NCBI GenBank assembly: GCA_026023565.1
Contig: JAPETS010000029.1
Coordinates: forward strand, 186,001-250,000
DNA length: 64,000 nt
Reading direction: 5' to 3'
Source: Cirrosporium novae-zelandiae
Lineage: Eukaryota
Shown here: positions 25,580 through 47,788 of the stretch, in pieces
Layout: each line of letters opens with the position of its first letter
Position numbering within the stretch: the stretch's first letter is position 1
Notes under the pieces: model-generated
What the model saw: the letters and a program-made list of their open reading frames with translations, nothing else
Databases searched by the model: none
What the model was told of the DNA's origin: nothing
Program-made: the position numbers and the translations under genes

Positions 25580-27570
25580 TTCATGTGTGTTGCTCTACAG
25601 CATAAGCGACGAGTAAGGACTAGGACGACCACACGAGCATGGAAAAGAAAATATATCTGAGTTTTCGAACCTGGAAATGGAGATGGATGGATTGATTATC
25701 CTTTGTGGATGACTTTTCTAACCGTACTCCTCAGACCCAAGGTGCAACAGGGTGATAAGTCTATCATCCTCAGGCCACATCCCTTTCGATTCCATTAGTG
25801 GAAATTAGTGGACTCTTTCCCATGAAGGATACGACACGATATGACATGGAGTCCTAGAATGGCATAGAGGATAGGAGATAGCCTGGTCGCGCCTCATCAA
25901 TATCTGTTTGTATCCAAGGATAGGTTGATTGATTTTATCGATCCCTCCAAGCTGCTCTATCCAACCAAAGAAACAAATCCTCTTATCAGTGGATTATCCT
26001 TGATGATGTTGATGGCGAGAGTACCAGACAATCTTCCAGGCCTACCTTTGAGCCTAGTCTCCCTATCCCGAGGTCACATTCAGGAATCAACTATGGTCAT
26101 CAATAATGAACACCTTTATTTCATCTCCAACCCTCTCGATCCGCAAGGAGTCACCCACCACCTCCAAGCATACCTCCAAACCCATCATCACCATAAGTAC
26201 AAAACCCGTATATACCCACAAAGGAAAGCAAAGGCATGGAAAGGAGTTAATTTGGTGTACACACAGAATACAGGCATGGGGCACAATGGGTACGTGATGA
26301 CAAAATGTGACATAGAATAGGCGTTTATTTCAACCGTCCAAAGTTTACATATGTATATATATATCCATACATATGCATAAACCGATTGCACTGCAAGCCT
26401 TGGCTTCTTTTTTTATTTGAGTCTTTGTGTGTTCGTTGGTATGTCCGTGGATGATTCAAATGGCATTAGCACTTGATACTGGTATACAGCACAGTATTAC
26501 ACTACACAAAGGCGAGGAGAGGGGAGGGTTCAAAAAAAGGGGGGGTTCAAAGATAGAAAGTTCCGTGAGCGTATTTATAAGCAAGCAAACATAAAGAGAG
26601 CCAACAAAACACTATTACATTGCTACCATGTATGTATGTATCTCCTTAGTATATGATAAAAACATATACATAGAAAGAAAACACGCACACACACAAATAG
26701 ATGAAACAAAGAAAGCAAACACCAAAAATAAATAAAAAGCATAACTCGATTTAACTTCGTACAAAAGTATAATTAATTATGTATTCTTGATAATTACAGA
26801 ACAAACACAATGCCTATCTAACTAATTAGCTAATCTAATCAATCAATCACTCTTTCTTCAACTAGTCTGTTAAAATTTCTACCACATCAATTACCACCAC
26901 CACCTACCTCCGTACCTAGCTATAACTATATATCCTTTTTACTTTACTTCACCCCCACTCCAGTCCACATATCTTACACTCTGCACCCCCACCATCTTCA
27001 TCCTCACTAAAAACCCCAACAAACCTTCCAAAAGTTCAAAATAGCTCAAAACTCAAATCCGATCCCAAAAAGGCTTGATAAGTTTGTTTTCTAGATTAAA
27101 TCTATCCTTAGTTCATTAGTTGGTTGCTATCTAACCCCCCTCAGTCCCTCTTTATTTTCCCCTTTTATTATCATCATCATTGTTATTATTGCTATTACTA
27201 TCACTATCATAACACACTAGTACCAGTTATATCAATATATCAATAAATATATCCACCAAGGCCTCACGATCAATTCACGATTCACGATTCACTTATCGAT
27301 AAAAACCATCATAGCTAAATACTCAATCTCTTCCTCCCCAAACAAACAAAACCCCTCCTAGGTTACGAAAAAGAGGACAGGACCCTTTTGCTGGCTCTCC
27401 TTGCCCGTTCATTCCTTTTTCTAAGGAACAGATATAAAATCCTACAACTTAGGTCGCTGATAATAGTAGTTCCGGCTTGTGCTAAACGCGCTACGCAAGA
27501 ACCTCTATATTCGCGACTCCTTATAAGATGAACTCCTCAGTAACAATCTATTGCATATACCATACCCCAG

Positions 27571-27842
27571 CATGCGGGTCCCAAAATAAGCGGGGCTCAC
27601 AAGAAGAACACTGATACCAGTGTGACCAATCACTAGCGCTCTTGGGAATCGAACCCAGCCTGGTCTTTATGGTATCCGACATCACATTCATCTTTCTTTT
27701 CTTTTTATTATTATTTTTCCTGGGGAGGCCTTCAAACAAATTAAATTGTTACTTCAAACTGATTTTGTTTAAAGGCCTCCCCAGAAACATTTCTCTAATT
27801 CCACCTTTGGGTATGAGTCCTGCTTATTTTGGGACCCGCGTG
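27571..27842. mobile_element. Non-autonomous TIR element (MITE), 272 bp, ~30-bp TIRs, 5-bp TSD CCCAG
   Basis: Left end catgcgggtcccaaaataagcggggctcac; reverse complement of the right end cacgcgggtcccaaaataagcaggactcat (26/30 identical). CCCAG lies directly on both sides (27566-27570 and 27843-27847). A related copy starts at 46774. Confidence 0.85.
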
Positions 27843-28473
27843 CCCAGCTTGCATACACCAATTCTCTTCTCATACTTATCCTCCACCCCAAGACTACAAC
27901 TATAGTCTTACACTCCTAAAAGAAAGGTGATGACTCTCGTTTACAGGTTATTTTACCCCTCCCTCATGTAGTAATCACACTTCAGATGAGATTCATGATT
28001 AACATTGGGAAGCTACAGAGTTCTCAGAGTGCGATTGAACCGTAAAATCACAACTTTATTAGAGGAACGAAGTTCGGGTATCCAACCCCTAGTCAATGGT
28101 AATTGACTAAGATAGCAAGGTATAAGGTAATGCTGAAGGATCTATTGGTCCAATGATAGGATATTGAGGCTCAATATTATTCGGCAAAGAATTTGATGCC
28201 TAACTATGCCTAAAAATGTTTATCTGACCTATTATGATCCTTACATGATACCCCTACTAGCGAGCGCCATTGGTATCCAGTTTAGGGGATTTCCCCTGTA
28301 CTGAATAGCGGGGTAGAAGTGCACATGCCATGCTCTGTCCAGCCTGAATGTTTGATCCGAGCCGTGTATATAAAGCTATAGAGTTCCCCTAAGGGACCGT
28401 AGTCGATACACACTGATCTGCCCCCCTGTGCAGATATTCCTTTCTTCAAGCAACTCTGCCTTTTCTCTGGTGA

Positions 28474-31353
28474 ATGTCAATCTGTCACGGGTCGACAATG
28501 TTGAAGCAACAGCTTGTAATATTTGGTGGGGAATTATTGATGCCGGAGGAATTTGAATGTCTTGATAAACAGAGCCAAAGTGCCTGCTTACTTCGTTATG
28601 TAGAGCGAAGAGAGTACGAAGCGCTCAAAGCCATTTTAGGCGCGCGATACGGTTATAATTATGTTGAGATTTGGAGTGATGGCCAAGTCATACCCCGGTA
28701 TTTGCATATACGGCGTACTTTACTTCGTGTTGCTGCAAATGCTGGCTATGAGTCAATTGTACAGCTTCTTCTTGCTCGAAGCGCGGGCGTTGCTGGCTCT
28801 GGTGGAGAACTAGCCCTACAAGAAGCAGCAGCAAATGGACATCAATCGATTGTGAGAATGCTTTTAGATAGTGGAGCAAACGCCAATACGCCAGTTATTG
28901 AATTCGGTGGGAAAACAGCATTCCAAACAGCAATAGAGGGTGGTTACGATTCGATTGTGAAAACATTACTAGAGAGTGGAGCAGATATCAATATATTTGA
29001 TAAAAAATTAGCGTTACAAACAGCGATAAGAGATGGACATGAATCGATTGTGAAGCTACTGTTGGAAAATAAAGCAGAGGTTAAAGCAATGCTGGCGGCT
29101 CGATTTAATGATAAAACAGCGCTACAAGTAGCGGCAGAAAATGGGCATGAATTGATTGTGAAAATATTACTCGCCAATGGAGCAGATATCAACGCAGTTA
29201 ATAACACAACGCTACAGATAGCGGCAAAACGAGGACACGAGTCAATTGTGAAGCTCCTCCGACAACTAAGCAACTTCACTCATAATACTATTCTAGAGGT
29301 CTTTTGGGAGGGTCTAGAATTCTATCAACAATGTAACGGTGCTTTGGGCGATGTTCTTACTATAACAAGAACGCACCCTAAACGCCATTGCTACATTGCC
29401 AAGTTGGTATCAGCCTTTCTAGACGAATACTATCCCTCTTTCGGACAGCAGCTTCTGACTTGGATTACAACACTTTGTGAGAAAATTCAGAAGGAAAGAA
29501 ATGCTATAAGCAAGCAACCTGATCGTCCAAGATATAGCGAAACCAAGAGTATAAAACAATCCAATTTGGACTTTGCTAACCCGGATATCTTGCAACTTGA
29601 TTTGGGGGAGGAACTTGGAATTTTCATAACAGCCCTAGAGTGGAGCAATCAAAGACTGGAATTGACTATTTCTGCAACATCGGACAATTCACTCATGAAA
29701 GTAAAGTCTGCTCTTACCTGGATAACATCTACCTTCCAACCTCGTAAGGGCCAGGCAACAGGTCTCTTCAAAGCTGGCTGTACAAACACTAACGAGTCAA
29801 TTGGTCCACCAAATATGGCGCAATTTAGTCCTACTCCGTCCGATTCTTATTGCTGGACCAATTTGTTCAAGTACGCTTGTATCGCAGAATTACCACTAGA
29901 TATTACTCCTACAGGAGACACTGAAGGGCTTGAGATTGATTTCAATTCCCTCTTGAGTCTTGCTGATGTAGACCGTGAGGTGACAACGGGCGACGATTTA
30001 ATGCTATTTGGTTTTGACACAGCCTTGGTCCCCCTTGACTCCGCGGCGAGTAAACGTTGGCATTTTTTATGCACCGATGGTATACAGATCACACCTGCAC
30101 GTTTGCGCCGAAAAATTGAGGGGCAAGAAATACACCTAGGAGGGAAGAGAAGTTATGGATACTGTGAAGGGAACGTATATGTTGGCTGGTGCGGTAACCC
30201 TATGGTCAATATTGGTACAGAAACTCAAATCGCAGATCCAAAGTTCGTAGCAGATGTCTTTATGTCTTCTGGCATATCTGAACACAAGAGTCTTGAGGAG
30301 CGATCGGAGAGGAGTTCTGCCAAAGATCTTTCTACTCAAGGACGGATAGGGTTTATGGGATCTGCACTTAGCTTCGGGGGTGGAATGAAACGGGAGCAGA
30401 AGTTCAAACAGGTTTGTGTAGTTGCTGCTCATTCAAAACCTAAAAGCTTTGAGCGCATGTTGGATGTCGCGTGTGCGACTCCATGTATCCTGTGGGATAA
30501 CTCAACGCAGCAAGCCACGATGCTACCGGCCGTGTCAATCCTCCTTTTCGCGTCGCTTTGCTATATTAAGTCAAAGGAATACGCCTTCAAAAGGCAGCAA
30601 AATGACCAATTTGAAACAGCCACATTTGTTTTTGCACAGTGTTCAGTTAATACGAAGGAATCTGCACTCGGTTGTTTAAGGAAAAACTATGCGTTGCAGG
30701 TAGCATCAGCGGATGGACAAAATATTGATGAAGAAATATTTTTTCATCAGATTGTTGGAGATATTTGGGCAAAAATGTCGGTGGGAGAAGACATTTGTTC
30801 TAGCAGCACTACAGGAAAGATGCACGAAAAAAAAGAGGTTTTGTTTGGCTATGACTTGAAGGAAGCTATTTGCGGGACTAAAATGCAGCTCCGGTCAATG
30901 AAAATAACTCATTCTCTCAAAAGTTGGGAACCACTTGCTCGAGTAAAACCCGTGCAGGTAATATTCTGTCGACGAGTCGGCCCTATCATTTCTTGCGCCT
31001 CCCAAACTTGCTCTAGCGCTTATTATAAGCAACCGTTGGTTAAAGGTGTTCTGAGTTGTCTTCTACAGGACCTCAAACGCTTGTATGGTGAACGGTGGGA
31101 TTCGTCGCCGCGGCTTCCAATTGGGGATGGTTTTGAGTGGATTCCTCAGGGACCTGAAATTTTCCACCATTCCGACGATTCTTCAGATGGTTCATGTGGT
31201 TGCTGCCCAAATCTAGATTGCCTGCAATCAATCCGCAGAACACCTCGGAATGATAATACGGCCAGCACGATGCAAAATGATAGTGGGGAAGGACCTTGGC
31301 TTGAGAGGATAGCAGCGTTGAGATTTGGTTTCGTAAGTAGATTACCGCATTAG
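28474..31353 (+). CDS. Intronless ankyrin-repeat protein (6 repeats) fused to an uncharacterised ~650-aa fungal domain
   Basis: Six xAAxxGHxxIVxxLL repeats (about 28720-29260). The C-terminal region has CWTNLF, GLEIDF, LFGFDTALVP, WHFL and YVGWC motifs. 959 aa without interruption. Confidence 0.85.
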   Translation: MSICHGSTMLKQQLVIFGGELLMPEEFECLDKQSQSACLLRYVERREYEALKAILGARYGYNYVEIWSDGQVIPRYLHIRRTLLRVAANAGYESIVQLLLARSAGVAGSGGELALQEAAANGHQSIVRMLLDSGANANTPVIEFGGKTAFQTAIEGGYDSIVKTLLESGADINIFDKKLALQTAIRDGHESIVKLLLENKAEVKAMLAARFNDKTALQVAAENGHELIVKILLANGADINAVNNTTLQIAAKRGHESIVKLLRQLSNFTHNTILEVFWEGLEFYQQCNGALGDVLTITRTHPKRHCYIAKLVSAFLDEYYPSFGQQLLTWITTLCEKIQKERNAISKQPDRPRYSETKSIKQSNLDFANPDILQLDLGEELGIFITALEWSNQRLELTISATSDNSLMKVKSALTWITSTFQPRKGQATGLFKAGCTNTNESIGPPNMAQFSPTPSDSYCWTNLFKYACIAELPLDITPTGDTEGLEIDFNSLLSLADVDREVTTGDDLMLFGFDTALVPLDSAASKRWHFLCTDGIQITPARLRRKIEGQEIHLGGKRSYGYCEGNVYVGWCGNPMVNIGTETQIADPKFVADVFMSSGISEHKSLEERSERSSAKDLSTQGRIGFMGSALSFGGGMKREQKFKQVCVVAAHSKPKSFERMLDVACATPCILWDNSTQQATMLPAVSILLFASLCYIKSKEYAFKRQQNDQFETATFVFAQCSVNTKESALGCLRKNYALQVASADGQNIDEEIFFHQIVGDIWAKMSVGEDICSSSTTGKMHEKKEVLFGYDLKEAICGTKMQLRSMKITHSLKSWEPLARVKPVQVIFCRRVGPIISCASQTCSSAYYKQPLVKGVLSCLLQDLKRLYGERWDSSPRLPIGDGFEWIPQGPEIFHHSDDSSDGSCGCCPNLDCLQSIRRTPRNDNTASTMQNDSGEGPWLERIAALRFGFVSRLPH

Positions 31354-46773: not shown

Positions 46774-46945
46774 CACGCGGGTCCCAAAATAAGCCGGACT
46801 TACAAATTCTTTTTTTACTTCTACTATTATTTTTCCTAGGGAGGCCTTCAAACAAAATTGACTTTTATCTTTTAGGCTTTAAAGAGGCCTTCAAATTATT
46901 ATTGAAAACTGATTTTTGTTTGAAACCGGAGGATGAGTCGCCTGT
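46774..46945. mobile_element. Second, truncated copy of the 27571 MITE family
   Basis: cacgcgggtcccaaaataagccggacttacaa matches the TIR. It is followed by tattatttttcctagggaggccttcaaacaaa and aaactgatttttgttt, matching the internal sequence of copy 1. No intact right TIR found; right boundary approximate. Confidence 0.75.
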
Positions 46946-47788
46946 TTGAATAATTATGTATTCGCTTAATTTCTCAATATCGTGATTGCACATTCAAACA
47001 TACGACTCACCTTCACCTTCCGAAAAATTATTATAACTGCTATGTTGTTGCCTTTCCTATTAATTGTAACTACCATATTAGAATTGATTTTGAGCACAGG
47101 GCGTTTTGGAGGAGTATATAACTAGCACCTCTTCCTCTATAAATCTACATCCTTTTTACTGTACATCACACTTTTAATCCCCAACACAAATAGTCAAGAT
47201 CCTCTTACTTACCTAAACTGTCCTAAAAATACGGTACCGCGGCAACTTCCACCCGCGCTATGTACATGTACAGTACCTACATACCATACAGTGCATACAC
47301 AATAATTACCAGAAACCTACCACCATCAATAATAGACCCAGCAATAGGTCAACCATCAGAAGTTCTTCATCCCGCAGTGAATAGTTACACTTGCCCAAAA
47401 ACCAAATTTCTATTCACTTTGCTCTTCTAATTTCAATTCACCCGTATTGCTCCTACAGCCTTTTCTATCACTTGAATCAATTTGACTCGCTCAATTTTAA
47501 ATTTCCCCTCCACCTCTATTCTACCCCCAACCTCTTCGTACTCATCCCGCTTCGTCCTTACTGTCGCACTTACTCCCCCCACCTCGTACGCTGAATCAGT
47601 CATTTTCAACATTCTACTCCTTACACTACCTGAAAATCATTTATCTTGGGTTAAACGTCTTTCTTCTGTTAGCCGTCACCGCGCAATCTAGGCGACAGTT
47701 CTTGGTCCTTTACGACCACTTCGCGCAGTGAGCTTATCGGGCTCCTAAAACATTCTTAAGCTTTCTTGACCACAACACATTTGCAACC

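Follow-up and report, generated by a model that had tools for sequence, protein, structure and literature searches.

Transib transposons are the source of the enzyme that rearranges our antibody genes. In the published accounts available to us, they are defined by GC-rich 5-bp target-site duplications, a conserved terminal CAC, a CACAATG heptamer and a nonamer (PMC1131882); Hztransib has little or no nonamer, so this last feature is not universal (PMC4840297). From the accessible text, fungal Transib was restricted to soybean rust in one study (PMC1131882), and a survey of fungal genomes with PF12940 gave Transib as the sole DNA transposon superfamily missing in Fungi (PMC5751038). Twenty fungal Transib-like proteins have been listed in a paper whose ascomycete example has no identifiable terminal inverted repeats (TIRs); TIRs are given there for neither Erysiphe nor Austropuccinia (PMC9435367, text and supplement as accessible). 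One Sporothrix genome bears two automatic CMC-Transib labels (PMC9281073, in part). Transib has been grouped with EnSpm, Plavaka and ESTA in a CMCT clade with CA..TG ends and duplications of 2-5 bp; its fungal members, in the accessible sections, make 2-3 bp or TA duplications, and fungal EnSpm ends read CAC..GTG (PMC12730594). Transposase evidence outranks duplications and TIRs, as one preprint cautions, and a genuine Transib transposase without domain hits is reported in the same excerpted source (bioRxiv 2026.08.26.747230). For ends alone, the Repbase rule, as quoted, allows one mismatch to a known family over the first 11 bases (PMC4455052). Epichloe festucae, a filamentous ascomycete, harbours 13 MITE families with AT, TA, TWY, 8-bp and 9-bp duplications, none of 5 bp in the part of the paper at hand (PMC3227409). 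In the open literature we found no ascomycete family described as having CAC ends together with 5-bp duplications, and Repbase, Dfam or subscription journals may hold one. Here, we examine such a family, hereafter the CAC family, from a window of 64,000 nucleotides (the whole stretch of DNA analysed) and across the genome of its host, Cirrosporium novae-zelandiae.

The window contains a non-autonomous TIR element (MITE) of 272 bp at 27571..27842, with no strand assigned, between CCCAG target-site duplications at 27566..27570 and 27843..27847 (both plus strand). Its extent, its TIRs of about 30 bp matching at 26/30 terminal bases and its flanking CCCAG had all been given in the initial annotation, and we recovered identical coordinates and the same match count. 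The left TIR (27571..27600, plus strand) is CATGCGGG and the right TIR (27813..27842, minus strand), read on its own strand, is CACGCGGG. The right end thus opens with CAC and the left with CAT, as annotated; the latter we interpret as a decayed CAC, given that C>T at TIR position 3 occurs in 8 of 73 genomic ends. Both junctions are spanned by contigs of the sole sequencing run that contains the stretch, a run that may be the source of the assembly rather than independent of it; no empty site was seen there. The element is intergenic, and the gene content (IQGAP, an RSC4-type domain, a hybrid histidine kinase) is in keeping with a filamentous ascomycete. An ankyrin-repeat ORF begins ~630 bp further on (28474..31353, plus strand) and encodes 959 aa, the ankyrin repeats being N-terminal and the long C-terminal part matching no Pfam family. 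Another dispersed repeat, covered by ~30 contigs of the run, lies immediately to the right of the MITE (28126..28281). ARAGORN returned no tRNA within the window, and Rfam yielded hairpin matches below threshold only.

Part of this element is foreign to it. An 80-bp repeat of another family (27602..27681, minus strand), whose ends read TG..CT and which carries a motif resembling a tRNA B box, entered the MITE where the left TIR meets the interior, an event that had escaped the initial annotation. It is bounded by TCACA on the left (27597..27601, overlapping the inner edge of the TIR) and on the right (27682..27686), both on the plus strand. Since this segment is a separate insertion with its own duplications, the MITE proper measures ~187 bp. 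Elsewhere in the genome, where the repeat pattern has 34 matches, exact 5-bp duplications flank 13 of the 26 other copies examined; none of the 34 matches are paired at retrotransposon spacing, and no parent element was seen. The repeat is probably either a SINE-like element or, as we would guess, a solo LTR.

A genome-wide TIR search, as the annotation had recommended, places the element in a family. Across the 31.4 Mb of the genome, the 21-nt TIR recurs 73 times when ≤3 mismatches are tolerated, whereas the same pattern reversed, as a control, gives 0 matches; its repetition is thus not due to chance. A longer, degenerate version of the pattern gives 81 matches. Thirty-six of the 73 ends belong to two-ended copies and 37 are single. 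The two-ended set (n=26) comprises 24 copies retrieved by program and two with a decayed end added manually (C52:295383 and C64:214420), and spans 156-785 bp. By eye, several subfamilies with common ends can be distinguished, of ~210-270 bp and ~400 bp. The terminal C, A and C are kept in 99, 96 and 89% of the 73 ends, values inflated by the pattern itself, which selected those ends. Best-hit identity among copies is 71-92%, with a median of 86% (22 of 24 copies tested), indicating that the CAC family is old. Dozens of its ends reside on long contigs amid ordinary fungal genes, which makes contamination unlikely. With copies that are short, non-coding, TIR-bounded, dispersed and flanked by a duplication of fixed length, the CAC family is a real, old, decayed, non-autonomous family of cut-and-paste transposons. 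Two side observations concern the assembly and one of the copies: contigs C35 and C47 show the same matches at the same coordinates (e.g. 223670, 66094, 9945), which suggests a duplicated contig, and the 785-bp copy hosts a nested element of ~335 bp that has inverted ends of its own and may be flanked by an 8-bp duplication (L038:1890-2230 and L096:1501-1833). A second copy in the window, from the longer subfamily (46774..47202, plus strand), starts with CAC at 46774 and has no preceding G, as had been annotated; the bases before it are ATTAC. Its left TIR is intact. It aligns with the first ~380 bases of the ~415-bp copies and has lost the right TIR along with the rest of the final ~36 bp, a loss missed at first reading; lacking a right end, this copy is useless as a test of the duplication.

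Duplication length was therefore scored over the two-ended copies, with the element boundary set at CAC and with flanks shuffled among copies as the null (5000 rounds). Exact 5-bp duplications occur in 12/26 copies, against a shuffled mean of 0.12 (maximum 2), and 16/26 copies agree within one mismatch, against a mean of 1.24 (maximum 6). Exact matches at other lengths (one at 2 bp, two at 3 bp, two at 4 bp and none at 6-10 bp) never rise above chance. In these 26 copies, then, there is no 8-bp duplication as made by canonical hAT (0/26), no excess of the TA kind made by Tc1/mariner and pogo, and no 2-4 bp signal of the EnSpm/CACTA (CMC) kind; the annotation had named TA, 3-bp or 8-bp duplications in other copies as what would overturn its reading, and no excess of any of them appeared. 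Ten of the 26 copies are without a 5-bp duplication even at one mismatch, one of these ten having an exact 4-bp repeat. Three more decayed copies, recognised by eye and kept outside the set, gave 5/5, 4/5 and no 5-bp match. Among the loci examined, the flanks of the copies led to no paralogous empty site. The duplicated bases are rich in GC: 41/60 (68%) versus 41.2% in the flanks (binomial p 2e-5), and versus 26/65 in the 5-bp duplications that the 80-bp element makes in this genome (Fisher p 0.002). Once symmetrised, the targets trend toward T-W-G, then S-C-W-G-S, then C-W-A, over 12 sites only. The proposal first drawn from a single copy, of CAC..GTG ends with a GC-rich 5-bp duplication, is thus borne out by the family.

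That single copy had also been given another parse, with GCAC..GTGC ends and a 3-bp CCA duplication of EnSpm type. Copy 27571-27842 fits this parse, and fungal EnSpm does make 3-bp duplications (PMC12730594, as accessible). Yet just 7/26 copies have the required G on the left and C on the right. Of the 12 exact copies, only 4 have complementary outer bases, while the direct repeat extends over all five bases. We reject the GCAC parse as extremely improbable and retain the boundary at CAC.

The interior of the element tells a different story from its ends. An internal palindrome (27717..27787, no strand assigned), with 31-bp arms that are 84% complementary, has a pattern with 125 genomic matches. 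We examined 50 regions, of which 49 surround listed matches that lie apart from known TIRs, and found 11 two-ended copies bounded by TA, which would fit a TA duplication, and five with CCGAGG-type ends, whose duplication length is not readable. These MITEs, seen within loci L139-L188 (e.g. L146, L151, L143, L147), share 46-123 bp with the CAC family at 71-89% identity. The presence of the palindrome in MITEs of two further end types, which the annotation had not remarked, suggests end swapping or nested origins around a common module. Such a module offers no clue to the autonomous partner; the ends alone inform. The silence of the interior also lends something to the view that the mover came from another or unnamed DDE group and that the likeness to Transib is convergent. 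In the accessible literature, lineages vary internally in duplication length and TIR ends (bioRxiv 2026.08.26.747230), and Kyakuja, another fungal group, has CA..TG ends with a 7-bp duplication (PMC12730594). Against convergence, CAC ends, 5-bp duplications and GC-rich targets are combined only in Transib and RAG-like elements among the groups described in the available parts of PMC12730594, PMC9435367 and PMC1131882. We thus regard a convergent origin as unlikely.

The annotation had also recommended a search for long copies with the same TIRs and a transposase. No autonomous partner was found, nor a partner of ordinary Tc1/mariner or hAT type. By eye, the inward-facing ends spaced 1.5-10 kb apart are all ends that already close short copies. 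ORFs on the inner side of all 37 unpaired ends, over 1.0-3.1 kb, look like host genes, as do those within ~9 kb of seven ends and in 12 further 10-kb regions (judged by eye, not with Pfam), the exception being a Tc1-like fragment near C52:996636. Profile searches of the genome for RAG1 (PF12940; 0 candidates), CACTA (PF02992) and DUF6589 (PF20231) gave no match and are weak negatives, their controls having given no signal; Plavaka (PF18759), again a weak negative, had no match either. Thirty small contigs (23 read whole, 7 partially) contain retroelement, kinase and other pieces and no intact TIR, with one stray 5-mismatch match inside a reading frame. By eye, some of these contigs hold Ty3/Gypsy-like pieces (L201, L212, L214, L217), Starship-captain-like frames (L202, L205) and a reverse-transcriptase fragment (L206). 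Beyond this genome, viral and prokaryotic genomes yielded 0 TIR matches, and three metagenome matches were rejected as chance, located as they are in prokaryotic contigs. The TIR is likewise absent from the supplement text of PMC12730594, which may lack some sequences.

The profile PF05699 recovered a single hAT above cut-off (C40:276343-279682, L110), near-intact with an internal stop in its reading frame. Its residence counts in favour of a mover from a fungal hAT lineage whose stagger had shifted to 5 bp, and CA..TG ends are compatible with hAT. However, its ends are CAGTG, its duplication is of 8 bp, TAAATGAC, and the TIR is unmatched in it within 7 mismatches; with other ends and another duplication, it is not the partner of the CAC family. 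Its ends and 8-bp duplication were read out properly, and so the method handles other footprints. Within hAT at large, duplications of 5, 6 and 7 bp are known, hAT5 making 5 bp and hAT7 being fungal, yet hAT5 is placed among animal hATs (PMC12730594, accessible sections). The targets of hAT are AT-rich in the main text of PMC1131882, with a supplement legend stating the opposite, whereas those of the CAC family are GC-rich. A shifted fungal hAT is, in our judgement, an improbable mover, on a par with convergence.

Overall, we suggest that the CAC family was probably mobilised by a transposase from the clade in which Transib/RAG1 are grouped with EnSpm, Chapaev, Plavaka and ESTA (the CMCT clade of Kojima); within this reading, we are about evenly divided between a true Transib and another fungal branch with a 5-bp stagger. 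A DDE transposase supplied in trans would have bound both TIRs, cut at CAC and excised the element, which would then have been inserted at G/C-rich sites with a 5-nt stagger; hairpins on the flanks would be expected from the analogy with Transib and RAG. The autonomous element may since have been lost, have decayed past detection or be absent from the assembly. More specifically, and only tentatively, the family could have been left by a native transposase lineage related to Transib/RAG1, active in several bursts in a filamentous ascomycete, which also placed its ends on the internal module of other MITEs. The CAC family carries a Transib footprint in ascomycetes, where surveys report either no Transib or isolated proteins that lack TIRs, and its TIR provides a probe for the partner in related fungi. 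Such a partner would reveal either RAG-related transposons native to ascomycetes or the same footprint evolved in another fungal lineage; without it, this remains an unclassified, old MITE family.

How far, then, does the family resemble the described systems? With Transib it shares the terminal CAC, the 5-bp duplication (12/26 exact) and the GC-rich targets (41/60). Of the heptamer CACAATG it has only 4-5 of 7 bases. The A-rich, RSS-like nonamer of Transib (positions ~30-38) is absent, positions 34-35 being mostly T, and the first 11 TIR bases show 3 and 4 mismatches to two Transib TIRs compared position by position, where the Repbase rule has one. A variant end, CACGCTGGTCCCAAAA, agrees by eye at 11/16 bases with a Transib TIR in the accessible supplement of PMC9435367. 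Hence the annotation's Transib-like family stands in its CAC..GTG ends and GC-rich 5 bp but not in a Transib mover, for which partner and nonamer are both missing; with a Transib-like footprint and no transposase, we do not file the CAC family as Transib. Within the CMCT clade, fungal EnSpm (CACTA) has the same CAC..GTG ends but a 3-bp duplication, and Plavaka and ESTA have the CA..TG ends of the clade with duplications of 2-3 bp and TA, respectively, versus 5 bp here. The MITEs of Epichloe festucae are likewise old, low-copy, intergenic and mostly parentless in a filamentous ascomycete, the CAC family differing in its 5 bp. Non-autonomous Transib elements, namely Transib-N of Anopheles and Hopper of Drosophila, also occur as short non-coding copies with CAC ends and a 5-bp duplication, and they display the same preference for GC-rich palindromic targets; the CAC family departs from them in its fungal host, in its lack of an RSS-like nonamer and in a transposase that was not found.
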